Shown here in pieces: positions 43,245 to 64,000 of a stretch of 64,000 bases of DNA. The DNA comes from an uncultured Elusimicrobia bacterium (GTDB lineage Bacteria > Elusimicrobiota > Elusimicrobia > 2-01-FULL-59-12): the NCBI GenBank assembly GCA_963702895.1, contig OY969767.1:704001-768000 (forward strand), in the 5' to 3' direction. Below the pieces are notes generated by a model. That model made no database searches. It was not told where the DNA came from and saw only the letters and a program-made list of their open reading frames with translations. The translations under genes were made by a program, and so were the position numbers. Position 1 is the first letter of the stretch, and each line of letters opens with the position of its first letter.

Positions 43245-43250
43245 TATGGA

Positions 43251-44213: not shown

Positions 44214-44226
44214 AAAGGAGGGTGCC

Positions 44227-44520: not shown

Positions 44521-44668
44521 GCTGGCGCCCGCGCCACGGGGTTGCCGCCTCTCCGGGAGGCCGCCTTGCTGGGGCACCACCGTTCCGGATGGTCGCCTTA
44601 TCGGCGGGCGCCAGCCCAAAGTAAACATTGCAGGCTCGACGGAGGGCAGGTACAATGTCATTACGGTC

Positions 44669-45413: not shown

Positions 45414-45614
45414 CCATCCCCTATCAGAGCGGGCTTTCTGACGCCGGCTCGCCGCTTCGCCCCCTCGCCGATTCGATCATCCGCACACGCCTTCCGCGTC
45501 ACCACCGATGTTCCGGATTGTCGCCCTTTCGGCCTAGATCAAAACGAGTTGATAAATCCACCACTCCTGCTGAATAAGATGTTGATTTCTAGATGCGTTT
45601 CTGATGCCAACAAT

Positions 45615-45646
45615 GTAACCCTCCCGTAACACCCATCTGTTAAAAA
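45615..45646 (+). promoter_or_regulatory. Shared promoter motif, copy 5 (GTAAC-N6-GTAAC-N8-GTTAAAAA)
   Basis: GTAACCCTCCCGTAACACCCATCTGTTAAAAA in the AT-rich region upstream of giant ORF 2. Confidence 0.65.
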
Positions 45647-45764
45647 TAAGCATAAGAATGAGAAGCAAGACCCATGAATCGAGTGGGCCAAACGGTCGGT
45701 TATTTTTGACCCTGCGACCCATCGTATTACCGTCGACGAAGAGATAAAGTTTTCTTGTAAGCCA

Positions 45765-46010
45765 CAGGGGAGAGAACAGGGGAGAAAAGGGGAAAAGATG
45801 GGAGGACAGGGAAACATGGCCAAGGGAGACGGCGACATGGAAAAAGTTCGATTAAATTTTTCTGCCCCCGCGCCTGAGCCACTCCACTCTTCGCCGAGCG
45901 ATCCCATCGACAATTCGTCAGACACCCTTTCTTCCTCAAGCCTCTTCTCCCGTCTTCTCCCCCGTTCTCCCCTGTTCTCCCGTGTTCTCCCCGTCCTCCC
46001 CTGTTCTCCC
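45765..46010. repeat. Purine-arm/pyrimidine-arm inverted repeat (GGGGAGAACA / TGTTCTCCCC)
   Basis: Purine arm ~45765-45830, pyrimidine arm ~45930-46010, spanning the start region of giant ORF 2. Confidence 0.8.
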
Positions 46011-46021
46011 TTGCGAAGCGT

Positions 46022-49000
46022 TTGATCTCGCTGCTTTTGGCCCTGTGCATGATCGTCGATCCCGTGTGGGCGACGGGCGTTTCGGACTTCGTCCGCGCGA
46101 GCTTCACGCACGACATCCGCGACATCATGATCCCGGCGAAGCTGGGGATGGTGACCGATAAGTGGATTGCGTCTGTATCGGAGTATCGGAGTAACGGAGT
46201 GCCGGGGTCACGTCAGAGCCGTAACTCCGCTACTCCGAAACACCGTGACTCCGATACTGTTGTTACCCCGATACCCCGATACCCCGATACTCCGGTACAG
46301 CCGTTTGTCGTCCTCATCCAAGACCTCCACGCCAACATCAGCGTCCAGCAAAATATCTCGGGCATCCTCCAGTTCCTCTACCGCCGCACGCGACTCAGCC
46401 ACATCTTCGCCGAAGCGGCCTTCGGCCCCTGCGATGTCTCCATCCTCCGAACCCTCCCCAGTCGGCGCGCGCAGAAGCGCTTTGAGAAAAAGCTACTCGA
46501 CCAGGCGCTCATCGCCGGCGACGAGCTCGCCGCCGCGCACGTGGGCGAGGGTCCCCTCTCACCCGTCAAGCTCATCGGCGTCGATGACCCGCTCCTGTAT
46601 CTGGCGAACGTCCAGGCGTTCCGTGATCTGGTTTCCAACGGCCCGCGGATCGCCGAAGAATGGAAGGCGATCCGGGACATTCTCATGCCCGGCGCGGCGC
46701 CGAGCTTGCGCCGGCACCTCGAGCTCACCGAGAAGATGCTGTCGCTCAAACTCGTCGATTACGAATGGGAACAGTACAAAGAACATAAAGATTGGACTCC
46801 TGGAAGGGCGTCCCGAGTCCCGAGTCCCGAGTCCCGCGTCCCGAGTTCCGCGTCCCGAGTCAAGGGACGGACGCAGAACCTGAACGGCCAGACGCGAAGC
46901 GCAGGACGCAAGACGCAAGACGCAGCACGCAAGACGCAGGACGCGCGACGCGTAACGCAGGACGCGAGACGCGTAACGCAGGACGCGAGACGCGAGACGC
47001 GGGACGCTTTATCTGAAGCGATCGCAGCGGCCGAGCGCTTCTACACCGCCGCCGAAGCCCGTAATGGGGCGATGGTGGACAATTTGCTGGATCAAATGGG
47101 TGTATCGGAGTATCGGAGTACCGGAGTACCGGAGTCACAGCGTGAAGGCGTAACGGAGTACCGGGGTACCGCAGTACCGGGGTCACATCAGAGCCGTAAC
47201 TCCGTTACTCCGATACCCCGTTACCCCGATACAGAAATTGCGCCGGTCGCGCTGGTGACCGGCGGCTTCCACACCGCCTCGATCGCTCACCGGCTCAAGG
47301 AGCAGGGCATCAGCTTCATGGTGGTCACACCCCAGGTCGACCGCCTCGACCACGAAGAGCTCTACGTCCGCAGCATGACCGAGCCGCCGCACGAAACCGT
47401 GCGGGCGGTCGCCACGTCCGGTTATCGACAGCTTACGAACCTCAAAAAGTTCGCTGTGAGCTTCGGCATGGGAGAGAAATTCGGAGAGTGGTTCAACCGG
47501 ATGATCAAGCCACAGTACATCTGGAAACAAATCAAAGCCTGGGCCCAAGATAGTTTTGATGTTCTTGTGCGTGAGGTGGCCGCCAGACTCCTCCGACAGA
47601 TCATGGACCAGCCTCAACGATTGCCTCGCTTCGCGTTGTCTCGGCGTTGGGCCCCGGCGCTGGCCGGCATCGGCACCGTTTTGGTCGCCACGCTCGCCTC
47701 CGTGGCGGATGCCGGCACGCTCCAGGCCGCCTCTTTCGCGCCGAGCCTGACGGCGGCATCCGCCGCTCAGCCGGCCTCTGATTTTCCCTCGTTGGGTGCG
47801 GCCTTCTGGCAGAGCGCCTCTGTCTTTCTATTGGTGTCCATCTTATCCATCCTTCTTGTAGCGTGGACCTGGCGATTCTTCCGCAAATGGCAGAAAGCCG
47901 AAAGTCCGCATATGGACATAGTGCATCGGCTTAGGAACATGATTCCACGGAGGTCAGTAACACCAGGCAGTCGTCCTGGTGTTAATCCGTCAGCGCCTCG
48001 TCGTGCGAAAAGTCTCCAGGCCGGTCAACCGCGGAAACCCTCCCCTCCCGCTGTTCTGCGTCTGCAGCTTGCTACTGATGTGCCAGCGGATCCCGTTGAT
48101 CTGCGTCTGAAGCTTGCTACTGATGTGCCAGCGGATCGAGGTGCAAAAGTACCCTCGGCCGGTCAACCGCGGACACCCTCCTATTCCCGTGTTCTGCGTC
48201 TGCCGTCCGTCCTTGTCATGGCCGCGGGAACGCTCTCCGCGCTGGCCGCCAGCGCCGGCAAAGTTGCAGCTCAGGGCCTCGAGGTCGCCGGCGCCGCGGC
48301 GGGCCAGGCCGCCAAGCTCGTTCAGGTCGTATCGCCGGAGGCCGTGTCGGAATACATCATTCATCCCGGCGACACGCTGAGCGAGATCGCGCCGCAGCTC
48401 GGGACCACGGTCCAAGACCTGGTTGAGCGCAACCATATTGTGGACCCCGACCTCATTTTCGCCAACGCCAAGCTCCTCTATCCAACACCGCATTTTGCGA
48501 CGGATCTTGCCGTGACGGCGTCCCAGCCGGCCGCTCAGGTCGCGGGTCCCGCCGCCCAGGCGGCCGACGCCGCGGCGCAGGCCGTCAACACGATCCCCTC
48601 CGCCGCGCAGGCGTCCAGCTGGTTCGATTCCGTCCAGCAGGTTTTCTCTCAAGGCTCGGCCGTGCTCCAGGCGCATCCCTATCTGATCTTCGGGTTCGTT
48701 GGCACGGCGATCATCGGACTGGTCTTCTACGGGATTTCCCGCTATCGCGCCCAGCGGTCAACCAGCGCCATCATTGAAAAAGCCTGGGTTCAGGCTCTCA
48801 AGAGAACGTACACTTCCGAAGCGCAAGCCAGAGAAGCGATCCAGGCTGTCCAGGCGCTCCTCCCGAAGCCGGGTCCTTATGGAGATTATGCGGAGTATGC
48901 CTCGGATGAACTCCTCACGAGCGTCATGCAGAGGATGGAGACCTCCAAGATTAGCCGAGGTGCGGATGGCCAGAACTGGATCCTTCGCGACGGCACCTCC

Positions 49001-52000
49001 AATTTGCGGCGCGAGCAGCAGGCCGCCCGGCAAGTCCGGGCCTACTACCTGGGATTGCCGCGCTACTATCTGAGACGCCTCTTCAACGCTGGGCGGCGGA
49101 AGTTTTTAAGTCCCTGGACGGAACTGGTCTCCATTGTGCCGTCCCCTTCGCCGGTCCCTCAAACGGCGCCTTCGGCAAAAGTCCAAGTGTCCGGGCGACA
49201 GGAGCCGTCGGCTGTCCACGCTTCGGTTGCCGGCGGCGAGCAAAGCGCGCCGAAAGCCGCCGCCGTGCGCTCCCAGCAGGCGGCCAAGGCCGCGGCGCGG
49301 CGGCGGCCTTCCGGTTCGGAAAAGCAGCCTAGGCGCCTCCAGGATATTCCGCGCCTGGCCGCACTCCAATTGACGGATGAAGAACAAATGGTTCTGGCCG
49401 AAGCGCCCGATCTCATGGTGGACAAGAGGACGGAAATCGATGCCGCCTACCGGCGCTTGAATGAACTGCTCGATACGCATATCCAGGCCTATGTCCTATC
49501 TTCATCAAAAAATACCTACCGGCACCTTCAGTTTGCACCTTCTAAAAAACAGCGTGCCCTCCAGCGTCCCCTCCAGCATGCCCAGCGCTTGAAGGAAATC
49601 CTTCGCCACCGCCCCCAACTTTTGCAGGAGGCAAAGCTTCTAGCACAGGCTTTAGGCAAGAACGCTCTCAACCAGAGGCGCAAGGCCGTGGATTTGGTGT
49701 TGGTGGGAAGCGCTGATTTGACGGAGGCTGCCGGGCGGCTCGAGCAAGTCGCGGCCCGCGTCGAAGGAGAACTCACTGGGGAGCTTGCAGCCGTTCAGGT
49801 CGCGGCGCAAGAGACCCAGAAAGATCTGGAAGCGATACGGCGAAGAGACGGCCGCATCCATCCATCGGTCTTAAAGTCCCTGGAACAAATAGTGCGAAGA
49901 CTTCCTACGCTCTTTGATGCCAGTTCTCTTCGCGGCGAACTGGAACATGTAGACCGCCTGAACGGCACCCTCATCGGGCGCGTCCAAAAAGCACAAGGAT
50001 TCCAGTTCCTTGCCGCCTTGCAAAGCCGGGTGAACCAGATCTTAAGGCACCTCCGCGGGATTGCCAAACTCCTCGAAGCTCTCGGTGCGCAGAAGGACCT
50101 GGCCGGCTCATGGGCTGAGTCCAGCAACAACCGGTGGCAGGCCGTCTTGGCCAGCCTTGCCCCGGCCCGCCGCATGCTCGCCCCGGTGGTCGTCGTGCTT
50201 GGGCTTGTGTTCGCCGGACCGGTCTGGGTCCCCTACGCATGGAGCGTCGTCGCCACGGCGCCCTATCTGAGCGGCACGGTCCTTGTGGCGGGCGCTCTTC
50301 TCGTTGGGGCCATCGCTGGCGTGAAGCGCTACCGTGCTTCCACGATGGTCGTGCTGGATCTGACGCCCAAGCTGTCCGGCGCGGGTGTTTCGGTTCTCCC
50401 GTTTCTCGCGCAGGCGCCTGCGCCTCGTCGCTTGGCGCGCACCGGCCTGGTGAGTCTTTTGCAGGCGGTGTCTTTTGCGTTGCCAGTGGCAGCCGGGAAT
50501 ATGGGGCCTTTCCAGACCCCCGCCCAGGAACTTCAAGACCAGGAGCTCTCGGGCTGGCAGCGCCGGGCGGACTACTTGCGCCGGCAGAGAGGCTATCTTG
50601 ACCCAAGGTCCTCCCGCGCGCAAGACCTTGCCCGTGAGTTGTCATGGGTCGAGGCACACCTTGAGGAAGTCGCGCTCCGCACGGCCCAGATGGAAAGGTA
50701 TTTGCAGGACCCTGCGCGTCTCAGTGCCGTTCATCAGCGGGAAGCCCGGCTAGAAAAACTTGCTTCCGAGCTTGCCGCGCTTGAAAAGCAGAAAGCCCCC
50801 GCCTCTCGCGTGGAAGCGCTTCGCCTGCAAATCCGCTATGAAGAGCTTGAACTCCGCAGGCTCAAGATTCCGGAAGAGCTTCATGACATCAGCCAGCAAA
50901 AGATCGCCATTCTCAAAGAAAACAAGGACGTCGATGCGCGGCTCAAAGCGCTCTATGCCCGCGAGATGACGATCCAAGCGGAAGAAGAGGCGCTCTCGCA
51001 GGCGCTTGTTGCCTCAGCCAACGCCTACGGGACATCGCAGGCGCTGCTGGAGGACCTCCAAGCAGGCCGCGGTGACGTGCTGGGTAAAGCGCTTGGCGTG
51101 CTCATCGGAAACTTTGAGCGCATCGAGAAGCTCCCCCGGCCGGAGCAGGAACGGATCCTGGCCGAGCTGGCCCAAGCGCGCGGCTGGACAGGGGAGCGGT
51201 CGGAAATCCTCCGGCAGCAGGCCATCGAGCTGCTCGAGCGCGCGCTCGTTCCTTTTCAGGCGCGCTTCCAGATTCGCCTGGACTTCTATGACCGCGCCAT
51301 GGCCCAGGCCGGGCTTCGGGAGCGTGCCTTGAACGGCCGCGTTAGTCACGCTGCGGCGGCTGAAGAGCTTGAATTCGAACGTGAAAGCGATCGTGCGGCC
51401 GCTGTCATACTCGAGAATCCCTATGCCGATGTTCTACTTGAGAAAGACTACGCCGGTGTCGCGGATGCAACCTTAACGCAGGAAGAAGTGGAGCTGCGGA
51501 ATCATTTGATCTCGATCATCGCACACGCGGAGGCCCGCTTCGACCAAGAGGTTGTGACCGGAGTCAAGCCGTCCCAAGACAGCGCCGAACTCGCGGACGT
51601 CAACTGGAAACTGGCCACAGCCCAAGGTCCTGAGCGCGAGAACCTTCTGAAGAAACAGAAGGAGCTTCAAGCGAGCATCCAGAAGCGTGAGGAGGCCGCC
51701 AAGCTCTCTCAGCGGAACAGCGAAATCAAGGCGCTGGCCGGGCGGCTCAAGCTCAAAGCCGGCAAACCCCAGGCCGAGTTTCAGCACCTGGCGAGCTGGC
51801 TGAAAGATTTGCATATCGCGGTGCCCCCTCCCGCGCCCTCCGCGGGCCTGCAGCAAAGGCTGGCGGCACTCAACCCCTCCCAAAGGGTGCAAGCCTTTTC
51901 CGAAGAGATGGAGCGCATGACCGAGCGCTCCTACGATGAAGGCCTGCAGCAGGCGATGAAGGTTTTTGGGGAAGTGTACGGTGTTGTCGTCGGCGACGAG

Positions 52001-55000
52001 TTCGATCAGAACATCGCCGATGCGCTGATCAAGGCCCTGCAATCGCCGAAAGACCAGGCTGATGTTTTGAAGGTGGAATCCCGCCTTGAAAACTCCGAAC
52101 AGAAAGAGGAACCCTCGTCCGCGCCCAAGTCCACTCCCGGCTTCTTCCCAAATCCCTTCGCTTGGCTCTGGTCCAAGATCGGAACCGAGGTGGATGCTTT
52201 CCAGGAACAATCATCGAAACCAAAAGAAAGCGCTGCCGATGCTCAAATCGCTTCCCAACTGGCAGAATTGGAGCGCCAGCTCGGCGAGGAGAAAGACAAG
52301 CACAAGAAAGACCAGCTCACCAAGGAAATTTTCGAGTTGCGCTTCATTCAGTCTCAGCGGGCGCTGGCGGGGAATGTCCGCGCGCTGCCCGATCAGCTCT
52401 CCGCGATACCGACTGAGCAGATCGGGCAAGTCCAAACATGGCTGGTCCTGGCCGGAATGCCCGAGCCGGATGCCGTCGCGCGAGGCTGGAAATACGCGCC
52501 GCAGATGAACGCGTTTCTGCGCGACTTCCAAAAGCAACGGGGCATCACCGGCGAAACCGACGCGAGCGGCCAGCCGCTCCTTCTCGAGAAGACAAAAGAC
52601 GCCCTGATCAAAGCCGTTTGGGCCGGACAGCGCCGCGCCCAGCGTACACAGGCGGACGCGCTGGCCCGTGCAGAAGAGCGCCAGAGACAAGCGCAGCTCC
52701 AAGACGAACACGCCCGGGCTGCTGTCCAAGCAGAGGCCGCCCGGCGCAAGGCCCAAGAAGAAACCACCACTTCTCCTGAGCGCGCGGAGGCCGCTGCTGG
52801 AGCCGTCGAGAATGTTGCCCGCATGAGCACGGATCTTGGCACGGGCGCCGAGGAAAGCCGGCGCGTGGTCGCAGCCCAGCAAAAGATCCCGCCGGGGATG
52901 CTTCCGGCCGTGGAGAAGCTGGTGAACCGCCTGAGCTCCCGGGCCGCCAACCCCCTGCAAGAACGGGCGGTCATTTATGAAGAGATCGTGCAAGTCCTGG
53001 CGCAGGCGTTTAGCCCGGAAGCCCTGAAGTTTGCCCTCCAGGAGCTGATCGCGCGTCATGCCAACGGGTTTTTTGCGGACGTGGCGGGGACACTGGCGGA
53101 ACACTTGGTCGGGCTCCTGGCGCTGGGCTCGTCCGTTTCTCTCGAGATTACGCAGCGCATGCTGAGCCAGACGCCGGACGTCATGGCCATCCCCGACAGG
53201 GGTTTCCGCACGCGCGAGACCCAATTCGCCGACACGAAGCTCCGGCAGTTCCAGGCGAGCGACCGCGGGTTCGACGCGAGCCAGTTGACGATGATCTTGC
53301 CACGCTTCCAGGTCCAGCTGGGCGGTGTGACGAACGCGGGGGACCGTTCTTTCTACGGCAGCCTGGGTGTCATGCTCCCTGTCGACCTGCGCGCGATCGC
53401 CCAGCGCAAGGAGATGGCGCAAGCCTATGCTGAGCTCCTCACCCGCGCGATCGCGGCCAAGAACCAAATGAATTTGGAGTTTATGAAAGGCTGCCTGCAG
53501 CTTCTGGCCTTTGAGGCGGCCATCAAGCAAGCCCAGGCCGCTCAATATGCTCAAGGGATCACCGAGGCCGAGCGTTATGCGCTCGAAGTCCAGGTGGACC
53601 TCCTTTTGGCCAGGCATGCGGAGCTCGCCAGACAACTGAGCGCCGTTTTCAAGGTGCCGCTCGAAGGCAAGGCCATGGGGAGGTTGCTGGGCGAGAAGCG
53701 TCAATCCTATTTTGATCTGCGGGAAAACACCCAGGTACTCGAGCCCGGGACTATCCAGAGTACGCTGGAGGAAGCGACGGAGGATGTGACGGCCTGGCTC
53801 AACCGGGAGTCCATCATCACGCAGGTCACGACCATCCTCCAAGGGCGCCCCGGCGTGAACGTCGAGACGCTGGGCAACAAGCTGCGGGCCGCCCTAAACA
53901 ACGCCGGCCAATCGGCGCTTATGAGCGGCGCGGGGCTCGATGAGGTCGTGCACACGGTCTTACGGGAGGCCCATTTAAATCCGCAGCCGATCGAAGACAA
54001 TAACTGGGAGATCGGTTTCACCCTCGCTCCTGCCCGCGCCGTTCCCAAGGGTTCCGATGGCAATCGCTTGGGCAGAATTCTCCTCGCGATCGGGACGAGG
54101 TCCCGGGGCTCGCTGATGCCGGCGCTCGAATGGAACGGCGGCGTGCGAGGACGCCTGGGCGCCTTCATCCACATCGATCTTATCGATCCTGCGCGCAAGG
54201 GCGAGCTGCCGGCCAAGCTTCGCGCGCTGGAGGCGGCCAAAGCGCGCGAGCGGCAGCTCGATGTCGAGCAGATGCGCCGGGAAGCCGCGTACACCTCTGA
54301 TCTTCTGGCCGGGCCCGCCGCCAGCGGCCAGGCGGCGCCGGAGCTCGTGGGTCGCTACCTCACAGCACGGCTGCAACAGCGGATTTTGGGGCCTGCTTCA
54401 GAGGCGGAACAGTGGCTTGAGACGGCCGTACCGATTCTTGAAGGGACCGCTGCAGATTCCGAATCCAGCCTGCGCGGCATCCTCGCGGCCGCGCGCAGCC
54501 GGGAAAGCGAAGCCGGCGTGTCCGCCGCCCAACTCCAGCTGGGCCTGGTCGAGAAAAAGTCTGGACGCTTCTCCTTGTCGATCGATATCGGGGCCCCCGC
54601 CGGCCCGACGCTCATCGAGCTCGCCTGGGACCGCAGCCGCTTCAAAAATCAGAACCAGATCATCGAGCAATTGCTGAAGATCCAAAACGCCCTCAACCTC
54701 GACCTCGTCGAGTTCCAGACACTGGCCGTCGTGGAAGTGCTCATCGCCGCCCACCAGTCCCCACCGGACTCCCTTGAAGCGAAGGTCGCCTTCAAGCAAG
54801 CGCAGTTCATGCTCCGGCGCCTCCTCGGCCAGGCCGCGCTCAGCCTCACGCTCTCCTCCGACACGCTCGAGGGCCTCACGCGGCTGCGCGAGGAGCTCTA
54901 CGCCCGGCAGAGGGAGCGCCAGGCCAAAGCCACGGAGCTAGAGGCGTTTGTTGCCCAGAAAGTCTATGAAGTGGCTTTACAGAACAAACCGTCCCTTCGA

Positions 55001-58000: not shown

Positions 58001-61000
58001 GCTCAGATTCACTATTTTGACCTGCTGCTCCAGCTCATCGGGAAAGACAACCTCCAAGGTTTCAACATCGTCGATTATCTCCGGCATCTCACGAATGAAA
58101 AGACCGATACGTCTTATATCCGTTTGGCCTATTGGGCAATCTACGCGACACACAAAGACATTGTCGGCCTAGGAGGCGCGGGGGTGCGCGAGCACTTCCA
58201 ACGGATGCTGAATCTGCGCGAGAGCGTCCGGGAGGCCGGTCTCTTTGGCCGCAATCAGGAGGGCCAGAACCGCGCCTTTGACCCGGAGCGCCAGGAAGAC
58301 GGAGAGCTGTTGAGTTATCTCGCGTCCTTCCTCAGTTTCCATGTGCGCTGGTTCGACAAGCCAGTGAATCTTTCGGGCCTCGTTTCCCTGATGAAAGGGA
58401 TAACACTGAGTTTTCAAGCGCCCTTCGTCTTTTTGCCTGCGCGCTTGGCCAACAACACGATGGAGCCTTCGGACCTTGCTTTGCTGATCGAACAGGCGGG
58501 GCGCCTGTGGGGGAAAGACCGCGCGCCGGAACCCGATGAGCTCAAAACACTCGTAACCAACGCTGCCACCCTCATCGGCATTGAGAAGCTGGGATCCAGC
58601 AAGGACCGCCGCAGCCTCCAGGCGCTGGAGGAGTACAGCCGGCTGGGCGAGCTCATCGATGCCGTCAAGGCCGTTTGGGAAGTGCAGCCCGCCGGCCTCG
58701 GGACCGACCGCGGCGTCGGGGCGGCCCTGGGCTATGAGATTGACCGGGTGGTCGACAAGCGCGAGACCGTTTCACACCGCCTCCAGATTCTCCAGACGCA
58801 GGCAGCCATCAAGAGCCAGCTTGAGGCAATCCTCAAACGGACGCTCCTGCCGCAAACACAGGACCTCGACCTGCTCGACCGCTGGGCCGGGGTTATTCTC
58901 GCGCGCTCCCAGGACACCGACCCCTTGTCGTATTTGAGCCAGTACCAGCGGGAGCTTGCGCCGCTCTTTGGCCGGCAGGAATCCGAAGGGCTGGATCTCC
59001 AGGATCCTGAGGCTTTTAGGATCGTCAACGATCTGGCGATCAACCACGCGATGCGCGCGGGCACCGTCAAGGACGTGGTCCCTCATCGCCAGGGCGACGA
59101 AGTCGAAGTGGAGGTTTCGTTGCCCGGCGTTGTCAAGGCCATGCGCGAGCTGCTTGACGTGTGGCTTCTCGCAGAAGGAAATGGCGAGCGCCACCTGCGC
59201 CTGAAGGACCAAGAGGCGTTTGCTTCGCTGCAGAAATGGGCCATTCGCCACTTGATGGCTGCACGGCTGGGCTATGCCGAAGACTATGTACCCAAGATCC
59301 TCGCGGCGGCCCATGAAGTGCGTCCTATGGTCGAGGCAGAAGAAAGCGGCCGCCTGGCTCCGAACCGGACGCGCGGTGCGCGCGCCAGTTTTGACAAGTC
59401 GCCGCTCCTCGCGGTTCTTGCCGAGTGGCGGATCCAGAACCCGCAGGCAAGCCCCGAGGATATCCGCCGGGTCATTCAGGAGTTCTCCGACAAAAACCGG
59501 ACCGAGACAGGCATCCGGGGACATTCCCAGCAAAAGGAAAGACAGCGAAATCCTTTTCTAGAGTGGATCCGGGCTCTCCGAGAAGGTCCGCCGGTTCAGA
59601 AAGCGCTACCGGGCAATGACGCGAATCGCGCCCCCACGCCCCGGCCGGATGCTGGAAAGCCGGCCACAAGCGCTCCAGCGGTGCCCGTCCGCGCCAGCGC
59701 TCAAGCCGCGCCCCGCGAGGAAGCGCAGCCGCGCGAGTCCCTGACGGCGATTCTTCCCCCCAGTCGCACGATGGTGAAGCGCTCAAGCGTGCGTGCTGAA
59801 GGGCGCAAAAAAGCTGTCGACGAAGAAATTGCCTTTCCTCCTGGCTTTGACAAGGTCAACGTCTCCTTTGTTATCCCGGTTCTTCCGCTTTTCCTCCTCT
59901 CGCGTCTCTTAGGGCGCAAGCACAGGGGCTATTCGCGCATTGCCTTCTCGTTGGGCGTCGTCGGCATTGTTCTCTTGGTCCCTTCCACGGCCGAAGCCCA
60001 GATGCCCCCGGGCGCCCTCACGCCGGACGGCCAGGATCTTCTTGATGCCATACGTGAATTCAGGGAGCCCTGGCGCCTGGGCTATTTCAATGATGATTGG
60101 GGCACCAAGATTGCTGCCATCGGTATTCCCACTCCTGCCGATATCAGTAAACTGAACGATGTAGCGTTCATCTATGGGGGGGCCGCGGACGAGTATTTCG
60201 CCTTGGTCTACGACCGGGTTCACGAACTCGTGGAAGGCTATGTCATGCCGAAGGGTTATGAAACGCCTTTCTTTGTTCTTTCGGGAATCCCCGTCGACGC
60301 GCGTGGCGTCACCGCCGACAATATCCTCGGGCTCAGGCGTTATGTCGACGCGCGCGATTACAATTTTGAGGACAATCAGAAAGCTCTCGAGCTCATTGAC
60401 ACCTTGCTGCGCGACGACTTCCTGAATAGGGCCTTCAAATACCTGAAGGGAATCTCCGTTGAGGACGGAGTAGCCTTGGGGCGCGGCCAGGTGCAGAGCA
60501 TTTTCACGATCTTTCATCCGGATATATCCCCATTGCCTTTACCGGATGGTACGGTTTGGCCAGTTCCTTTCTCCGAATATTCGCTTGCTTCCTTCACCGG
60601 GGCCATGCGCGAGCTCTATGAGATGCATCTTGATTTCAGTCGCGCAGGGCTCGGGGCCGCTTTCCGGGTCCTCTTTCATGACATCAACATCGATGCCTCC
60701 AAAGTCCAAACCCCCGGCAGTGAAGCCTTCCTGATGTCCTTGGTGGGGACCATGCCCTATAAGCCCGAACAGATTCGCCAGGCCCTGATCATGATTAAGA
60801 CGGCCAACCCTGCTTATGTAAGTGCGTTCCGCTATGTCCATGGGTTAAACATCGCCTATGGGAACACGCTCACCGAGGAAGAACGTGATAAGTTCTTTGA
60901 GATCATGAACCCCGGGGGTGTCATGCTGGAAGGGGAGAAACTCACGGAGCACCTGGAGGCGGTGGAGAAGATTTATGAGCTGCATGAGGCGTTCAAAGGC

Positions 61001-64000
61001 GACATGCGTAGCGCGTTCCTGGTGTTTAAGGGGATTGATTTAGCCACGGACCCGCTTGCGCCGGAGGATGTGAAGTCGATGTTTGATTTCGTGGGGGCGA
61101 AGGACCCCTCCTATGACTCGGAGGCGGTGTTGGCGACGGTGCAGATGATTTATGAGGTGAACGAAAAGACGCTCACGAAGGAATTCCTGTATGTGCATGG
61201 AATCGATGTGACCTATGGAAGGGTGCTTCTCCCGGACGAGGCCAAGCGCTTGGCGGGCATCGCCAACCCTGAAGGCGGCCGCGTGGAAGGGGAGAAACTT
61301 ACGGAGCACTTGGAGGCGGTGAAGGAGATTTATGAGTTGCACATGGAAGTGCAAAAAGATCCAAACAGGACCAAATCCTTCAGGATTCTCAACAAAGGCA
61401 TTGATCTGGGTGGGAAGACGCTTGCGCCGGAGGATGTGAAGCCGATGTTTGAGCTTGTCGGAACCCAGGCGGATCCGGACAAGGGAATCTTCAAGTACAG
61501 TAAGGAAGGGACCTTGGTGACCCTGGATGTGATAACGGAGATCAATCAGGGCGGCAAGAAGAGGCTGGGCGCTTTTGAAGATGTGTTCGGGTTTACGGTG
61601 GAGTGGAACGGAAAACCTTTAAGCCCTGAGAATGCAAGAAGGATGGGTACGATCGCGCACCCGGACGGGGAGGCACTCAAGGGACAGGATCTCACGGACT
61701 TCGGGAAGGACGTGGAATACGCCGCGAGTTACTTGACGGAGTTGCGTAAGCAAGAGACCTTAGGGGACCTGAAGTATCTGACTGGCGTCGATCTGCCCAA
61801 GAAGGGCCCGCTCGATGAGAAGCAGGCCAAAGACCTCTTTGGTCTCCTCTACAAGAGCGCACATGTCCGGCATACGTTTGTGGAGCAGGAGAAATTTGAG
61901 GAGGCGGCGCGGGATCTGGGGTATGCGGCGAAATACCTGGAGGCCCTGCGTAAGACACCGGGAGCGCTGGCGGCGTTAAAGGACCTGACCGGCAAAACGC
62001 TGCCTCCTGAGGAGGGGAAGACCCTGAACGGGGAGGAGATGGATGACCTCATTGGGCTCCTCTACAAGGAAGGCGGGGACCTGCACGATTTTGTGAAGGA
62101 AGAGAAGTTTGAGCAGTCGGCACAGGATCTGGTGTATGCGGCGCAGTACTTAAAGGAACTGCGTGCTGAAGAGGGGGCGCTGGAGGCGCTGGCCTACCTG
62201 ACGGACACGAAGCTCCTGCCGCCCAGCGGCAAACTGACCGGGGACCAGATCGACTTTTTGATGGAGCAGCTCTACAAGGCGGATGGCAAAACGCATCAGG
62301 ATTTTGTGGAGGATAAAGAGTTTAGGGAGGCGGCCCAAAACCTCGTCCCTGCGGCGGACTACCTGAAAGCGCTGCGGGCGACGCCGGGGGCGCTGGAGGC
62401 GCTGGCCTACCTGACGGGCACCCAACCCCTGCCGCCCAGCGGCAAATTGACCGGGGACGAGATTGACTTTTTGATCGGGCAGCTCTACAAGGCGGATGGC
62501 AAGACGCTGCAGGATTTTGTGGGCAAGGGGGCGGAGGCGTACACGAAGGCGGCCGAGAACCTCGTCTCAGCGGCAGAGTTATTAAAGGATAACGAGTACC
62601 GAGAGTTTTATCAAATCCCAGAAAACTTTACGTCTGATCCCGACACCAATCGAGAAGTTATCGAGTTTGTGATAGATCAGGTCTTCACCTTCATCGGAGA
62701 TAAGCGCTACTACACTCAGGGCGAAAGGTTCGTGGAATCTTACCTTCGGGAAGTTCATTTGATGCTGGCCCTGAAGCGGCATATCGAAGGCGTTCGACCG
62801 CTTTGGGAGCTGCTCAATGGCGGCGAGGATTTTGTCTTGGCCTATAACTCCACTCCCCCGCAAAATAAGGATGACGTATATGGCAATCCTTCACAGCGAG
62901 GAATAGACGTTCAATTCCTCCGAGACCTTGTGGGCCTGATTGGCCCGGCGACGCAGTACGGCTTCCAGGATGAAAACCAGCTCTTCGCGATGCTCGACAC
63001 CGCCGCCAAAGTCGCCCCCGCGGCCCAGGAGTACGTGAAGATCCTCCTGCGCGATGGCCAGCTCGGCGAGACCCCGACCCCGAATGTGTACGGGCTGAAA
63101 GTCGATACGGCCGCGCGCGAGCTGCTCTTCTCAGTGGCCGCGGAATTCTCCAATCGCGGAATGTCCAGCCTCCTGGGCATCGACGGCGCGGATCACAGCC
63201 TGGAGAAACTGGCGCTTGTGAAAGCCGCGCGCACGCTCCGCGAAGAAGGCTACTCTGGCCCATTGGATCTTAAGACCTTTGCCCAGCAGCTCAAGGTGTA
63301 TGGCATGGAGCGGGAAGCCTCGGACGTTGTGCGCCTGCGCCAGGCCGCCAGCCGCTACGGCAGCCGCAACGGCGAGTACGCGTTGTCTTTTGCCGCGGCC
63401 AAGACCCTCGAAATCATCCTCTTTGGGGCGGACGAAGTCGGCAAGTACCATTACGTTCTGGAAGGAGTGGGATCCAACGCCGGCTGGGCCGCCCGCCTCA
63501 CGACACCCGCACGGGCCACGGTGACGGACCCCGTCTACGCGCATCGCAAGATCACCGACACCTACACCGCCTTCGGAACGATCCAATCAACCGTGATCGA
63601 AGATCCTTCCGGCTATGAGGACACGGTGACGCTCACGTACGACCAGGATGGCCGCCCCTCCGGGAAATACATTGGGAATGAGCGCGCGGCCACTTATGAA
63701 GCGTGGCGTGTCAAGCGGGATGACCCGGCCTTTAAAGAGCTTGAGCGCTGGATCGGGGCGGAAGCGGCAAAAGCCTTTGCCGAAGTCGACCTCATAAAGG
63801 AAACGGACGTCGAAACCGGCCGCAAGTCGTTGTCTTATTACACCGTCACCGGCGCAGATACTGTTGTCCCCGGAGACCTCATCGCGCAGCAGGTGGGTGA
63901 TGAAGTGACCCTTGTCCGGGACATCGGCCTGGACACCCGGCGTGAGGCCTGGCAGCTCGACTCCTCCGGCCTGGACGCCCGGCGTGAGGCCTGGCAGCTC
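46022..64000 (+). CDS. Giant envelope protein, at least 5,984 aa, 3'-truncated by window (absent from ORF track; start uncertain)
   Basis: Frame +2 opens after TGA 45875-45877 (TTG 46022, ATG 46049) and the window ends in the same frame. The track lists no frame +2 ORF beyond 46 kb, as expected if there is no stop. Spot translations give a signal-like helix, IQDLH...LVTGGFHT domain, LysM (48350-48485), TMs, coiled coils and a beta-rich region. Confidence 0.88.
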   Translation, partial: MISLLLALCMIVDPVWATGVSDFVRASFTHDIRDIMIPAKLGMVTDKWIASVSEYRSNGVPGSRQSRNSATPKHRDSDTVVTPIPRYPDTPVQPFVVLIQDLHANISVQQNISGILQFLYRRTRLSHIFAEAAFGPCDVSILRTLPSRRAQKRFEKKLLDQALIAGDELAAAHVGEGPLSPVKLIGVDDPLLYLANVQAFRDLVSNGPRIAEEWKAIRDILMPGAAPSLRRHLELTEKMLSLKLVDYEWEQYKEHKDWTPGRASRVPSPESRVPSSASRVKGRTQNLNGQTRSAGRKTQDAARKTQDARRVTQDARRVTQDARRETRDALSEAIAAAERFYTAAEARNGAMVDNLLDQMGVSEYRSTGVPESQREGVTEYRGTAVPGSHQSRNSVTPIPRYPDTEIAPVALVTGGFHTASIAHRLKEQGISFMVVTPQVDRLDHEELYVRSMTEPPHETVRAVATSGYRQLTNLKKFAVSFGMGEKFGEWFNRMIKPQYIWKQIKAWAQDSFDVLVREVAARLLRQIMDQPQRLPRFALSRRWAPALAGIGTVLVATLASVADAGTLQAASFAPSLTAASAAQPASDFPSLGAAFWQSASVFLLVSILSILLVAWTWRFFRKWQKAESPHMDIVHRLRNMIPRRSVTPGSRPGVNPSAPRRAKSLQAGQPRKPSPPAVLRLQLATDVPADPVDLRLKLATDVPADRGAKVPSAGQPRTPSYSRVLRLPSVLVMAAGTLSALAASAGKVAAQGLEVAGAAAGQAAKLVQVVSPEAVSEYIIHPGDTLSEIAPQLGTTVQDLVERNHIVDPDLIFANAKLLYPTPHFATDLAVTASQPAAQVAGPAAQAADAAAQAVNTIPSAAQASSWFDSVQQVFSQGSAVLQAHPYLIFGFVGTAIIGLVFYGISRYRAQRSTSAIIEKAWVQALKRTYTSEAQAREAIQAVQALLPKPGPYGDYAEYASDELLTSVMQRMETSKISRGADGQNWILRDGTSNLRREQQAARQVRAYYLGLPRYYLRRLFNAGRRKFLSPWTELVSIVPSPSPVPQTAPSAKVQVSGRQEPSAVHASVAGGEQSAPKAAAVRSQQAAKAAARRRPSGSEKQPRRLQDIPRLAALQLTDEEQMVLAEAPDLMVDKRTEIDAAYRRLNELLDTHIQAYVLSSSKNTYRHLQFAPSKKQRALQRPLQHAQRLKEILRHRPQLLQEAKLLAQALGKNALNQRRKAVDLVLVGSADLTEAAGRLEQVAARVEGELTGELAAVQVAAQETQKDLEAIRRRDGRIHPSVLKSLEQIVRRLPTLFDASSLRGELEHVDRLNGTLIGRVQKAQGFQFLAALQSRVNQILRHLRGIAKLLEALGAQKDLAGSWAESSNNRWQAVLASLAPARRMLAPVVVVLGLVFAGPVWVPYAWSVVATAPYLSGTVLVAGALLVGAIAGVKRYRASTMVVLDLTPKLSGAGVSVLPFLAQAPAPRRLARTGLVSLLQAVSFALPVAAGNMGPFQTPAQELQDQELSGWQRRADYLRRQRGYLDPRSSRAQDLARELSWVEAHLEEVALRTAQMERYLQDPARLSAVHQREARLEKLASELAALEKQKAPASRVEALRLQIRYEELELRRLKIPEELHDISQQKIAILKENKDVDARLKALYAREMTIQAEEEALSQALVASANAYGTSQALLEDLQAGRGDVLGKALGVLIGNFERIEKLPRPEQERILAELAQARGWTGERSEILRQQAIELLERALVPFQARFQIRLDFYDRAMAQAGLRERALNGRVSHAAAAEELEFERESDRAAAVILENPYADVLLEKDYAGVADATLTQEEVELRNHLISIIAHAEARFDQEVVTGVKPSQDSAELADVNWKLATAQGPERENLLKKQKELQASIQKREEAAKLSQRNSEIKALAGRLKLKAGKPQAEFQHLASWLKDLHIAVPPPAPSAGLQQRLAALNPSQRVQAFSEEMERMTERSYDEGLQQAMKVFGEVYGVVVGDEFDQNIADALIKALQSPKDQADVLKVESRLENSEQKEEPSSAPKSTPGFFPNPFAWLWSKIGTEVDAFQEQSSKPKESAADAQIASQLAELERQLGEEKDKHKKDQLTKEIFELRFIQSQRALAGNVRALPDQLSAIPTEQIGQVQTWLVLAGMPEPDAVARGWKYAPQMNAFLRDFQKQRGITGETDASGQPLLLEKTKDALIKAVWAGQRRAQRTQADALARAEERQRQAQLQDEHARAAVQAEAARRKAQEETTTSPERAEAAAGAVENVARMSTDLGTGAEESRRVVAAQQKIPPGMLPAVEKLVNRLSSRAANPLQERAVIYEEIVQVLAQAFSPEALKFALQELIARHANGFFADVAGTLAEHLVGLLALGSSVSLEITQRMLSQTPDVMAIPDRGFRTRETQFADTKLRQFQASDRGFDASQLTMILPRFQVQLGGVTNAGDRSFYGSLGVMLPVDLRAIAQRKEMAQAYAELLTRAIAAKNQMNLEFMKGCLQLLAFEAAIKQAQAAQYAQGITEAERYALEVQVDLLLARHAELARQLSAVFKVPLEGKAMGRLLGEKRQSYFDLRENTQVLEPGTIQSTLEEATEDVTAWLNRESIITQVTTILQGRPGVNVETLGNKLRAALNNAGQSALMSGAGLDEVVHTVLREAHLNPQPIEDNNWEIGFTLAPARAVPKGSDGNRLGRILLAIGTRSRGSLMPALEWNGGVRGRLGAFIHIDLIDPARKGELPAKLRALEAAKARERQLDVEQMRREAAYTSDLLAGPAASGQAAPELVGRYLTARLQQRILGPASEAEQWLETAVPILEGTAADSESSLRGILAAARSRESEAGVSAAQLQLGLVEKKSGRFSLSIDIGAPAGPTLIELAWDRSRFKNQNQIIEQLLKIQNALNLDLVEFQTLAVVEVLIAAHQSPPDSLEAKVAFKQAQFMLRRLLGQAALSLTLSSDTLEGLTRLREELYARQRERQAKATELEAFVAQKVYEVALQNKPSLRITVPASPTPKTVVVAIAKNLISVPVFLVSFLRHGVTPQERAEKRAIDEQQRALEEQQRAQGQKPQSAPKKPMSEREKRLDELERKAREAEEQALAAQIALELEQGGPGVQVIKNNAGQVMLFTEVQGANPAGPSRRYFLVRPTPQTIKDLVNWQPGRRDQEISTLTGSFLAPILVAADLIKVGDLHELAVTEYNSANGKILRTYHVGGEGVQALVQARDTNLNQDLVGQIAWQFLISDFVLGLGFSGTAGQPGRLNQDWMLRNMGRNLKDLSSPMYDVSAVFGHSAFTVRGAYAYDSQSSAGVAALSAPLGENASAGVGGKVNTTGKSTTIIPFGQVSYSHRSDAEGLLTRVSAYFSQDQDYIDLMQNLNRSSAVQLRVFYGAGGQLEFMPVINIQNGRWVLAANIDRHNIEPSFTARWVIKHDLAVRINGMLHDERNYATYVNLIKTLPRGGEYYGGVRATSEQSVQMDLGASTRLRSLTVEGMMLFELEDLARISWGLQVAQHIGHQGGSSWSASVGGDGQDSSRWAFMFQQTLTPLRKLYGLPGAPAPGVPPGEKDGVSAPSAAGGFSEALAQTLGENAAAEKLFDQITRSLSTDAKDLKQAAEALRRELVRLPPEEQARLGPLVQGLLDVIEGLPQGISVLQKASQSVVGKMEAQLVQIDRELEALAPRHAGSAPIQSTRKSLREKLDKVSKIHAEVHKTFQDYLKALQDVQKGRQTLQALGIQTDLSELQQARGEYLRSIEAVHRISQVPRSARSSQDRNEWRRFVELRRSLDPIVQDFLRSAQAEVSSDAQRAWLDYFVIWDWMNPEKPQAAEVMNVMKGLLPHLDRLGQLDMNKSGARELLDQIASAILIGKVDPQSVYALLDRAAEMLPSFARMQGSSAFDLNRSGDLLELLRWVHGNEMAVDAVQKDIRQEKLPESLGTVRQGAQVRAEILKDVATLLRQIIQEADPDGEQFRRSDPQHQALFDNALNVLADAILKDAYLRGASVPKAMLSAQIHYFDLLLQLIGKDNLQGFNIVDYLRHLTNEKTDTSYIRLAYWAIYATHKDIVGLGGAGVREHFQRMLNLRESVREAGLFGRNQEGQNRAFDPERQEDGELLSYLASFLSFHVRWFDKPVNLSGLVSLMKGITLSFQAPFVFLPARLANNTMEPSDLALLIEQAGRLWGKDRAPEPDELKTLVTNAATLIGIEKLGSSKDRRSLQALEEYSRLGELIDAVKAVWEVQPAGLGTDRGVGAALGYEIDRVVDKRETVSHRLQILQTQAAIKSQLEAILKRTLLPQTQDLDLLDRWAGVILARSQDTDPLSYLSQYQRELAPLFGRQESEGLDLQDPEAFRIVNDLAINHAMRAGTVKDVVPHRQGDEVEVEVSLPGVVKAMRELLDVWLLAEGNGERHLRLKDQEAFASLQKWAIRHLMAARLGYAEDYVPKILAAAHEVRPMVEAEESGRLAPNRTRGARASFDKSPLLAVLAEWRIQNPQASPEDIRRVIQEFSDKNRTETGIRGHSQQKERQRNPFLEWIRALREGPPVQKALPGNDANRAPTPRPDAGKPATSAPAVPVRASAQAAPREEAQPRESLTAILPPSRTMVKRSSVRAEGRKKAVDEEIAFPPGFDKVNVSFVIPVLPLFLLSRLLGRKHRGYSRIAFSLGVVGIVLLVPSTAEAQMPPGALTPDGQDLLDAIREFREPWRLGYFNDDWGTKIAAIGIPTPADISKLNDVAFIYGGAADEYFALVYDRVHELVEGYVMPKGYETPFFVLSGIPVDARGVTADNILGLRRYVDARDYNFEDNQKALELIDTLLRDDFLNRAFKYLKGISVEDGVALGRGQVQSIFTIFHPDISPLPLPDGTVWPVPFSEYSLASFTGAMRELYEMHLDFSRAGLGAAFRVLFHDINIDASKVQTPGSEAFLMSLVGTMPYKPEQIRQALIMIKTANPAYVSAFRYVHGLNIAYGNTLTEEERDKFFEIMNPGGVMLEGEKLTEHLEAVEKIYELHEAFKGDMRSAFLVFKGIDLATDPLAPEDVKSMFDFVGAKDPSYDSEAVLATVQMIYEVNEKTLTKEFLYVHGIDVTYGRVLLPDEAKRLAGIANPEGGRVEGEKLTEHLEAVKEIYELHMEVQKDPNRTKSFRILNKGIDLGGKTLAPEDVKPMFELVGTQADPDKGIFKYSKEGTLVTLDVITEINQGGKKRLGAFEDVFGFTVEWNGKPLSPENARRMGTIAHPDGEALKGQDLTDFGKDVEYAASYLTELRKQETLGDLKYLTGVDLPKKGPLDEKQAKDLFGLLYKSAHVRHTFVEQEKFEEAARDLGYAAKYLEALRKTPGALAALKDLTGKTLPPEEGKTLNGEEMDDLIGLLYKEGGDLHDFVKEEKFEQSAQDLVYAAQYLKELRAEEGALEALAYLTDTKLLPPSGKLTGDQIDFLMEQLYKADGKTHQDFVEDKEFREAAQNLVPAADYLKALRATPGALEALAYLTGTQPLPPSGKLTGDEIDFLIGQLYKADGKTLQDFVGKGAEAYTKAAENLVSAAELLKDNEYREFYQIPENFTSDPDTNREVIEFVIDQVFTFIGDKRYYTQGERFVESYLREVHLMLALKRHIEGVRPLWELLNGGEDFVLAYNSTPPQNKDDVYGNPSQRGIDVQFLRDLVGLIGPATQYGFQDENQLFAMLDTAAKVAPAAQEYVKILLRDGQLGETPTPNVYGLKVDTAARELLFSVAAEFSNRGMSSLLGIDGADHSLEKLALVKAARTLREEGYSGPLDLKTFAQQLKVYGMEREASDVVRLRQAASRYGSRNGEYALSFAAAKTLEIILFGADEVGKYHYVLEGVGSNAGWAARLTTPARATVTDPVYAHRKITDTYTAFGTIQSTVIEDPSGYEDTVTLTYDQDGRPSGKYIGNERAATYEAWRVKRDDPAFKELERWIGAEAAKAFAEVDLIKETDVETGRKSLSYYTVTGADTVVPGDLIAQQVGDEVTLVRDIGLDTRREAWQLDSSGLDARREAWQL
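46174..47232. repeat. Three in-frame palindromic repeat inserts in giant ORF 2 (8-mer 46174-46298; 7-mer 46809-47007; 8-mer 47101-47232)
   Basis: Same unit families and core (GGGGTCACRTCAGAGCCGKAACTCCG) as intergenic arrays; frame preserved. Confidence 0.88.
60830..62580 (+). repeat. Intragenic protein repeats in giant ORF 2 (two ~120-aa units, then about four ~70-aa units)
   Basis: EGEKLTEHLEAV..IYELH twice (~60927, ~61286); DL.YAA.YL..LR...GAL.AL..LT...LP....L......L...LYK repeated. Confidence 0.8.

Follow-up and report, generated by a model that had tools for sequence, protein, structure and literature searches.

The window analyzed here is a stretch of 64,000 nucleotides (bases 704001-768000) of an uncultured Elusimicrobia genome that is available as a single contig of 2,724,539 bp with 98% marker completeness. 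Its last 18 kb are occupied by the beginning of a giant gene, and this report deals with that gene and, in particular, with the domain located at the N-terminus of its product, referred to as the head. The first-pass annotation of this DNA had claimed a hidden open reading frame (ORF) of at least 18 kb, free of stops in frame +2 from 45878 to the end of the window, with 5,984 codons counted from ATG 46049. Exact translation agreed. When open ends were admitted in the ORF listing, an ORF of 5,993 codons with a TTG start and an open 3′-end was found at 46022..64000 (+); its translation from 46022 to 63999 contains zero stops, and the nearest in-frame stop upstream is located at 45875-45877, which leaves the frame open from 45878. 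The gene had been overlooked since ORFs that exit the window are not listed by default. As the annotation had proposed, the open-ended translation was extended into the whole genome sequence, where no in-frame stop was encountered until genome positions 788683-788685 (window-equivalent 84683-84685), which close the frame. Counted from TTG 46022, the gene has 12,887 codons (38,661 nt, no N) and extends 20.7 kb beyond the end of the window; the region 46022-64000 covers the 18 kb at the 5′-end of a genuine gene of 38.7 kb. The N-terminal features are as follows, with amino acid (aa) positions counted from the TTG codon.

46022..64000, + strand: giant gene, first 5,993 of its 12,887 codons (open-ended ORF listing, translation, whole-genome frame, and G+C content by codon position)
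46022..46081, + strand: signal-peptide-like N-terminus, M-ISLLLALCMIVDPVWA/TG (translation, hydropathy, and reading by eye)
46130..47386, + strand: head domain, aa ~37-455, an unannotated module resembling Tiki/EreA/ChaN-superfamily hydrolases (alignments, AlphaFold, and fold searches)
46322..46330, + strand: D101-L102-H103, first acid/His motif (D and H in 147/147 listed representatives of the family)
46412..46414, + strand: E131, 28 residues past H103 (E in 147/147)
47060..47062, + strand: R347, conserved basic residue (R in 147/147)
47270..47272, + strand: H417 of G-G-F-H, second His motif (H in 144/147)

With a stop probability of 0.032 per codon (mononucleotide model), the probability of finding no stop in such a frame is about e^-416. 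The two alternative sense frames have 16 to 43 stops per 1,000 codons in each 1,000-codon block, and the G+C contents at the three codon positions stay near 0.65/0.44/0.72 (GC1>GC2<GC3) throughout all 13 blocks of the giant. Chance is therefore excluded as the origin of the frame. The region 44000-64000 also lists 21 other ORFs of at least 150 aa, among them short frames that overlap the giant. That the gene is real follows from the codon-position pattern, from the presence of LysM, SLT, methyltransferase, and GlgA-like domains along the chain, and from a collinear locus in a second genome. In this genome, G151 (locus L048, from a record labelled Elusimicrobia metagenome-assembled genome), a homologue of the giant was found on one contig (C53, 90500-129999), with tblastn matches whose order is preserved between aa 1 and aa 12,863, spanning 36 kb and covering 6,904 of the 12,887 residues at 25-75% identity. 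The homologue is split over at least five frames, with two of the frame changes within the head. One of the breaks contains a string of unknown bases, and a second falls within low-complexity sequence rich in Pro and Gly, so that real splits and draft-assembly errors look alike at this locus. For the same reason the locus was rejected as evidence that the modules of the giant can exist as separate genes. The panel includes only one genome of the same family, G064, in which a short-form head is carried by a 3,476-aa ORF and a 35%-identical piece is located in the adjoining ORF of 4,477 aa; a full orthologue was not found there with three queries of 1,000-1,221 aa. Since only fragments of similarity are seen in this relative, the giant evolves fast. 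A search with residues 1500-3000, taken from the first 6,666 aa, detected no full-length relatives of 3,666-11,666 aa at E<=1e-5.

The choice of start codon is uncertain. The candidates are TTG 46022, ATG 46049, and an in-frame CTG at 46001. Initiation at TTG 46022 yields the N-terminus listed above, and initiation at CTG 46001 would prepend the basic n-region F-S-L-A-K-R. The start codon is abutted by a hairpin repeat, which stops 12 nt ahead of TTG 46022 and may have displaced the original start or leader, or may affect translation initiation.

45764..46010, no strand assigned: purine/pyrimidine hairpin repeat of 10-nt units, ACAGGGGAGAA / CCTGTTCTCC

Promoter and terminator scans near the start of the giant detected none of these elements, and the terminator scan showed weak terminator-like hairpins downstream of its stop codon.

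The head was recognized by a series of motifs, VLIQDLH, FAEAA, GVDDP.LY..N, FY.AA..RN.AM, and LVTGGFH, all of which were found by translation where the first-pass annotation had placed them. In the giant they read IQDLH (aa 99-103, at 46316), FAEAA, GVDDPLLYLAN, FYTAAEARNGAM, and LVTGGFH (aa 411-417, at 47252). A profile search at E<=1e-3 showed that exactly seven ORFs of this genome carry the head: the giant, four ORFs of 6,682, 1,972, 1,730, and 1,536 codons, and two stand-alone proteins of 351 and 331 aa. The genome has 31 ORFs of at least 1,500 codons, which make up 11.8% of its length; five of them have the head and 26 do not, including the largest (13,707 codons). The family is much larger than this set. 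A search of 1.84 billion representatives with a 12-sequence profile (A1) returned 9,717 cluster representatives at E<=1e-3, 6,412 of them at E<=1e-30. Detailed statistics were calculated for the 147 new sequences among 150 representatives listed out of the 9,717. The head starts at residue 1-93 in all 147, the median of their lengths is 1,560 aa (106 reach 1,000 aa or more, 23 reach 3,000 aa or more, and 17 have 650 aa or less), and their median cysteine content is 0.17%. Of the 151 genomes in a sample of the phylum, 51 have the head, as do 25 of the 63 genera, on ORFs of up to 12,027 codons. Eighty head loci from a pattern-seeded scan of species genomes, a procedure whose seed pattern biases the list of labels, were labelled as Elusimicrobia-type (34), Omnitrophota (19), "uncultured Planctomycetia/-ales" (11), "uncultured bacterium" (11), and others (5). 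The statement in the annotation that this pattern heads giant proteins of such genomes was thus borne out, for long as well as giant proteins of Omnitrophota and Elusimicrobiota, by the number of representatives, the N-terminal position in all of those analyzed, the phylum sample, and the labels.

The head also exists by itself. The stand-alone 331-aa paralogue has 111 relatives of similar length, which are named only "hypothetical protein" and none of which carries a Pfam domain, and a search of the ESM Atlas with the stand-alone paralogue returned only unnamed clusters from Elusimicrobiota and Omnitrophota. A signal-peptide-like N-terminus was recognized by eye in all seven paralogues, and a crude heuristic detected a signal-like stretch in 95 of 122 relatives as compared to 266 of 1,281 control ORFs. 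Behind the head, Pfam matches were found in eight of the 25 relatives scanned and none in the other 17. The cargo in those eight comprises triosephosphate isomerase (TIM) plus GHMP kinase, FBPase_3, class-I aldolase, phosphoglucose isomerase, two response regulators, and HATPase. As a side observation, in relatives P0114, P0116, P0118, and P0161 the glycolytic or gluconeogenic enzymes TIM, fructose-1,6-bisphosphatase (FBPase), class-I aldolase, and phosphoglucose isomerase are located behind an export-type leader. The head is a separate module, autonomous because stand-alone forms exist, strongly conserved, and always first in the chain behind a signal-peptide-like leader. The combination of a constant head and a variable cargo suggests that it has a generic role in the life of such chains.

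To which superfamily the head belongs was addressed by structure and sequence comparisons, using AlphaFold models of the giant's head (aa 30-470) and of an insert-free paralogue. The model of the giant's head had a mean predicted local distance difference test score (pLDDT) of 80.9 and a predicted template modelling score of 0.76, with three repeat inserts appearing as low-confidence loops. In a VIA-align search of 48,161 chains, its first match was ChaN (2g5g; Z 8.6, root-mean-square deviation 5.6, 181 residues aligned), followed by EreC (6xcq, Z 8.2, 171 residues), HopBA1 (5t09, Z 8.0, 170 residues), and 2qgm and 2rad (Z 7.7). The top six Foldseek matches were all members of the superfamily, at E values of 0.08-0.7. 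The annotation had advised a fold search after removal of the inserts, and the insert-free paralogue, modelled with a pLDDT of 91.1, gave Foldseek matches to 3b55 (E 6.1e-4, probability 0.97), 6xcq (1.7e-3), 2qgm (2.2e-3), and 2rad (2.5e-3), together with VIA-align matches to ChaN (Z 8.8, 186 residues), HopBA1 (8.6), and EreC (8.0). ChaN, EreC, HopBA1, Bcr135, and Bcr136 occupy five of the top seven VIA-align rows with each model (Z 7.3-8.8, 162-212 residues aligned). The models therefore match, with moderate strength, the alpha/beta fold of the solved members of the superfamily, in which helices flank a central parallel beta-sheet.

Sequence comparisons pointed in the same direction. Sub-threshold matches to PF04187 ("Tiki superfamily, ChaN") were obtained for 17 of 55 family members, the best at 3.3e-4, and the next family was matched by six. 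An hhalign comparison of the head family with 12 bona fide members of the ChaN family, taken from the same phylum, gave E 5.3e-4 and paired R..N/GGFH with WNe.M/GnGH. PF05139 and PF04187 have zero matches in the whole genome, PF01963 has no sequence-level match in the head or in the relatives scanned, and the head stays below the curated gathering thresholds of all three. Because every curated threshold failed, the head is better described as a new family within the superfamily than as a member of PF04187, PF05139, or PF01963. Taken together, the head very probably represents a highly divergent family, so far without annotation, in the hydrolase superfamily of Tiki, erythromycin esterase, and ChaN. 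The annotation had spoken of an EreA/ChaN/TIKI metal-binding fold. The likeness in fold stood up in the fold searches and in the residue pattern described below; the qualifier "metal-binding" is doubtful, as EreC and the endopeptidase RRSP were reported to be metal-independent (PMC7979712 and PMC6254334).

The residues that are invariant in the family alignments are D101, H103, Q109, E131, G186, Y341, R347, and G414, with H417 nearly so. Among the listed representatives, Q109 is present in 147/147, as are the acid, the first His, the Glu, and the Arg of the feature list. The catalytic residues of EreC are E47, H50, E78, R261, and H289 (PMC7979712), those of RRSP, a Tiki-family endopeptidase, are E3900, H3902, E3930, R4001, and H4030, and the His/Glu pair of Bcr135 is H85/E113 (PMC6254334). 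Mutagenesis showed that the acid-His/Glu/Arg/His set is needed for catalysis in EreB/EreC and in RRSP (PMC7979712, PMC6254334). The distance from the first His to the Glu is 28 residues in the head, in EreC (H50-E78), in Bcr135 (H85-E113), and in RRSP (H3902-E3930). The distance from the Arg to the second His is 27 in the insert-free paralogue as compared to 28-29 in the references. By order along the chain, DLH corresponds to the E-x-H of RRSP and to E47..H50 of EreC, R347 to R261/R4001, and H417 to H289/H4030. The head thus has, in the order and spacing of its sequence, the catalytic-type residues of the superfamily (acid-x(1-2)-His behind strand 1, Glu some 28 positions on, Arg, and the second His, in G-x-x-H, 27-29 positions past the Arg), and it is likely to be catalytically active.

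The remainder of the chain is a mixture of few recognizable domains, hydrophobic segments, and repeats. The features located within the window are listed first.

47813..47869, + strand: hydrophobic segment, aa 598-616, Kyte-Doolittle value 2.22, followed by basic residues (crude hydropathy only)
48353..48478, + strand: LysM peptidoglycan-binding domain, aa 778-819 (PF01476, E 4e-8)
59855..59995, + strand: hydrophobic hairpin, aa 4612-4658, with a second helix resembling an internal signal peptide (basic stretch, hydrophobic core, A-E-A/Q)
60209..62581, + strand: tandem repeats in the protein, aa ~4730-5520 (self-BLAST in chunks, lowest E 3e-41)

The LysM domain is flanked by hydrophobic segments at aa 724-742 and 884-902. 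Beyond the window the chain has an SLT lytic transglycosylase domain (aa 6884-6992; Pfam 1e-23, NF047373 4.5e-18), a HemK/PrmC-like S-adenosylmethionine (SAM) methyltransferase domain (~aa 11653-11771; MTS 2.6e-11), and a GlgA-type glycosyltransferase domain (~aa 11935-12505, or from ~aa 11991; Glyco_transf_5 2.2e-23, and TIGR02095 glgA at 1.6e-41, which is under the cut-off of that model). When the full chain was scanned with Pfam at E<=0.01, only LysM, SLT, methyltransferase families, and Glyco_transf_5 were matched, each once. A stretch rich in Ala, Glu, Leu, Lys, Arg, and Gln covers aa ~1000-3000, and a second region of tandem protein repeats is located at aa ~6160-6870. Both repeat regions were seen by chunked self-BLAST; self-BLAST of the whole protein gave the identity match alone. 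Cysteine represents 0.05% of the giant, as compared to 1.11% of 1,527 pooled ORFs of 200-999 aa and 0.29% of the 31 ORFs of at least 1,500 codons.

Kyte-Doolittle hydropathy identified 33 hydrophobic 19-mers in the giant, clustered at aa 544-902, 1375-1427, 4612-4658, 8387-8448, 9076-9301, 10053-10622, 11233-11626, and 12750-12861. The segment at aa 598-616 is likely the first membrane anchor behind the head. Four internal segments, at aa ~529-565, 715-745, 4632-4660 (59915-60001), and 8377-8407 (beyond the window), resemble signal peptides in that they have a basic stretch, a hydrophobic core, and a small-x-small (A-x-A-like) end; one of them includes a twin-arginine-like motif, S-R-R-W-A-P. 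LysM and SLT domains work on peptidoglycan, and enzymes that depend on SAM or on sugar nucleotides work in the cytoplasm. Because the chain mixes peptidoglycan-acting and cytoplasm-type modules, it would have to cross the membrane repeatedly. We infer that the giant is a signal-peptide-led, almost cysteine-free, multi-pass membrane protein.

Giant proteins of this kind have been described before. West-Roberts et al. (2023, bioRxiv 10.1101/2023.11.21.568195) described those of Omnitrophota, mentioned that Elusimicrobiota have proteins of 10,000 aa or more, found the N-terminal regions of the giants to be generally without identifiable domains save C39 and S8 peptidases, and reported the proximity of secretion genes to the Omnitrophota giants. 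Nielsen and Lui (2026, bioRxiv 10.64898/2026.06.07.730766) defined a class 1 of multi-enzyme giants with signal peptide and transmembrane segments, whose most frequent families are PF08323 and methyltransferase domains. The giant described here resembles the Omnitrophota multi-enzyme giants in its length of more than 10,000 aa, its signal-peptide-like start, its many predicted transmembrane segments, the unrelated enzymes present in one chain, and the type II/Tad-like secretion cluster found near it. Like the class 1 proteins, it carries a starch-synthase-type PF08323 domain and a methyltransferase domain, and like the Archaeovorins (10.1101/2023.11.21.568195) it has an SLT domain. With a length beyond 10,000 aa, a signal-like start and hydrophobic segments (recognized here by crude hydropathy), and several enzyme Pfam domains none of which dominates, it has the characteristics that define class 1. 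It differs in its host: the class 1 giants come from Omnitrophota, whereas the closest named relatives of this one are labelled Elusimicrobia or Elusimicrobiota. Phylum excepted, the giant belongs to the published kind of giant multi-enzyme membrane proteins. Neither preprint mentions Tiki, erythromycin esterase, esterase, or ChaN as a protein in its main text, and the papers listed for Tiki together with Omnitrophota are unrelated to the head domain, judging by titles and abstracts.

Several characterized proteins are comparable to the head itself. The erythromycin esterases and their relatives (EreA-D, Bcr135, and Bcr136; PF05139; 6XCQ/6XCS, 3B55/2RAD, and 2QGM) provided the best Foldseek matches to the paralogue (probability 0.87-0.97), and the head shares with EreC the order acid-His, Glu (+28), Arg, and His (+27 to 29). 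Unlike the erythromycin esterases, with which it has 10-15% identity, the head has a long helical insertion, is predicted to be exported, and is fused to a giant chain; nothing suggests that macrolides are its substrate. ChaN (PF04187, 2G5G) was the top VIA-align match of both head models (181 and 186 residues) but is, unlike the head, a small haem-binding lipoprotein. Bona fide PF04187 genes were found in 14 of the 151 genomes of the phylum sample as separate ORFs of 270-400 aa, none of them in this genome. Tiki1/2 and TraB/PrgY, which are membrane-tethered ecto-peptidases, consist of a signal peptide, an extracytoplasmic Tiki-fold domain with two His motifs, and one or more membrane anchors. 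The giant is predicted to have the same succession of signal peptide, Tiki-fold domain, and anchor, but in Tiki1/2 and TraB/PrgY the anchor ends the protein, whereas in the giant about 12,300 more residues follow. Another comparable protein is RRSP, an effector in the Vibrio MARTX toxin and a Tiki-fold hydrolase with a 2His/2Glu+Arg set within a modular protein of several thousand residues (PMC6254334); the C-domain of PMT (2ebf), which is related to RRSP, reached Z 6.2-6.3 against the head models in VIA-align. RRSP is an internal cargo that acts in the host cell, and MARTX is cut by a separate cysteine protease domain; the giant's head, in contrast, is always first. A MARTX-type toxin was rejected as an identity for the giant, whose chain has no RTX repeats or cysteine protease domain (Pfam, E<=0.01). 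A two-partner-secretion (TPS) TpsA protein was rejected too: no TPS or haemagglutination-activity Pfam domain was matched in the head at E<=10 or in the 30 neighbouring ORFs.

The best explanation as a whole, in which we have good confidence, is that of a genuine multi-pass giant with an exported and active Tiki-type hydrolase at its head. The leader would carry the head across the inner membrane by the Sec pathway, the hydrophobic segment or segments that follow, beginning with aa 598-616, would tether it at the membrane, and there it would act as an autonomous hydrolase of peptide or ester bonds in which His and Glu activate water. The stand-alone paralogues presumably work as autonomous hydrolases likewise. 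As for the bond that is hydrolyzed, an envelope peptide or ester other than the exported chains is a tentative candidate, and exported protein chains, the giant's own included, which the head would mature or trim, are a slightly more doubtful one.

A number of observations weigh against this explanation. The giant's own head matches zero Pfam families at E<=10 and no NCBIfam model, and when the PDB sequences were searched with the profile of the family, the best E was 0.27 and all matches were unrelated. The hhalign comparison had a probability of just 30.5% and its N-terminal half was mis-registered; the register stayed wrong when the comparison was repeated with mact 0.1, mact 0.01, or global alignment. 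An unrelated, Rossmann-like uroporphyrin methyltransferase reached Z 8.0-8.3 over 98 residues. The fold alone is not decisive because Z values of 8-9 are middling and this methyltransferase scores alike. Export of the head was read from the sequence by eye and with the crude heuristic, and hydropathy combined with flanking charges yielded no single consistent topology, the charges of several segments being in conflict. In the paralogue of 1,730 codons (p1730) no hydrophobic segment is present between the head and the FBPase domain, so that either this FBPase is exported or the head is not.

The first-pass annotation had gone further and considered the head a possible processing or secretion domain for giants, a proposal that has been weakened by the presence of the head in only 5 of the 31 long ORFs, the stand-alone nature of two of its seven copies, and the absence of a junction tag. 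Its processing half survives better. If the head were the dedicated maturation protease of the giants, cutting its own chain or other giants at periplasmic linkers, the product of the gene would be a polyprotein. Tiki, PrgY, and RRSP are peptidases of the superfamily, with RRSP located in a giant autoprocessing MARTX toxin (PMC6254334), and in the family studied here the head is constant and strictly N-terminal, the cargo varies, and the catalytic set is invariant. This proposal nonetheless seems unlikely because 26 of the 31 ORFs of at least 1,500 codons, including the one of 13,707 aa, manage without a head, two copies of the head stand alone, and a periplasmic enzyme could not reach cytoplasmic linkers. 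Moreover, the candidate junction tag R-S-E-x-R was found zero times in the five long head-bearing ORFs and once in the other 26 giants, and no recurrent junction motif is present among the commonest 6-mers. Signal peptidase, on the other hand, could cut the chain on the periplasmic side without the head, since four internal segments look like signal peptides. A more elaborate scheme, in which the giant is a membrane-threaded polyprotein matured in the periplasm by signal peptidase, which cuts the internal signals, and by the Tiki-type head, which trims or releases the exported modules, is quite improbable. If it were true, the cell would follow the logic of flavivirus polyproteins and use a single gene of 38.7 kb to deliver many enzymes, among them some that normally belong to the cytoplasm.

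The secretion half of the proposal would make the head a non-catalytic domain recognized by a transporter, in the manner of a TPS domain or of the C39-like domain of type I substrates. Its position is TPS-like, with a signal peptide, a conserved domain of ~300-400 aa, and a long variable chain, and the window includes a Tad/type II-like secretion cluster 27 kb upstream of the giant. A passive secretion signal is, however, very improbable. Hydrolase-type residues that are invariant in 144-147 of 147 sequences would be needless for mere recognition, stand-alone forms are well conserved (111 clusters for the 331-aa paralogue), Pfam detected no Omp85/TpsB, ABC-C39, or other transporter among the 30 neighbouring ORFs, and the many hydrophobic segments favour retention in the membrane over release. 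Even less probable is a ChaN-like domain of the lipoprotein type that binds haem or another cofactor and is not an enzyme. Although ChaN was the best VIA-align match of both models (Z 8.6 and 8.8) and PF04187 the only Pfam family matched recurrently, the differences in Z among ChaN, EreC, and HopBA1 are under 1, which makes them tied, the genome has no PF04187 protein, and the head holds the full set of residues that EreB/EreC and RRSP require for catalysis. Finally, an assembly chimera or decaying pseudogene, for which the homologue in at least five frames in G151 could speak, is extremely improbable given 38.7 kb without a stop, a uniform codon bias, a nearly complete genome in one contig, and breaks in G151 that point to draft errors there. 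Among the sequencing runs listed, one DNA run contains a fraction of 0.05 of the sequence words of the stretch and no RNA run contains it, which speaks neither for nor against this reading.

How proteins of 10,000-150,000 residues are made, inserted, and used is a question raised by two recent preprints, both of which leave the N-terminal regions unannotated in their main texts. An enzyme-like domain with invariant catalytic-type residues opens about 10,000 protein clusters, most of them of long proteins, and small stand-alone versions of it exist. The head can therefore serve as a small, expressible handle to ask if giants are cut, which side of the membrane they reach first, and which bond is hydrolyzed. 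With it, the Tiki/erythromycin-esterase superfamily also gains a large family that had no annotation, and annotation pipelines could use this family to flag such genes. The head family was found in the main text of neither preprint; as a gene, the giant joins a known group.

The three inserts that interrupt the head of the giant are hairpin elements made of inverted tandem units of 7 or 8 nt and are translated in frame.

46170..46303, + strand: insert 1, 8-nt units GTATCGGA / ACTCCGAT, peptide ...SEYRSNGV...TPIPRYPDT (missing in relative P0147)
46808..47007, + strand: insert 2, 7-nt units GTCCCGA / AGACGCG, peptide SRVPSPESRV...TQDARR (low pLDDT in the model)
47096..47232, + strand: insert 3, 8-nt units GTACCGGA / CCGTTACC (low-confidence loop in the model)

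We take these inserts to resemble the Rickettsia palindromic elements. The same peptides (SEYRS.GV…TP.PRYPDT and SRVPSPESRV…TQDARR) were found within MiaB-like, DnaX-like, and UvrA-like ORFs (genome positions 947810-949117 (-), 817564-819381 (+), and 1677037-1680231 (-)), and they recur at dozens of other sites, in several frames.

Directly past the giant, on the same strand, there are three long ORFs (genome region 788600-808000; offsets 180-9233, 9385-13992, and 14062-19251). They have 3,018 codons with a DnaJ match, 1,536 codons with a head, and 1,730 codons with a head and a class V FBPase (FBPase_3). Upstream of the giant, the window includes a second very long ORF at 26476-38682 (+), of 4,068 codons, which has a marginal match to ResIII helicase (E 1.1e-4), a cysteine content of 0.17%, and no head domain. 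The secretion cluster is located at 13744-18648 (-), 21018-23143 (-), and 23775-25756 (+), 20-30 kb upstream of the giant. Its Tad/type II-like part consists of two T2SSF proteins, a T2SSE ATPase, a ParA-like protein, and a secretin, and it is adjoined by PorV-like and FlgD_ig/CHU_C proteins and TadE/TadG-like pseudopilins. The region 39289-45410 (+), which separates the two long ORFs, looks like a defence or mobile stretch, with two AAA_14/DUF4143 ATPases, a nucleotidyltransferase, an HATPase_c_2 protein, and a DUF6036/AbiEii-like nucleotidyltransferase.

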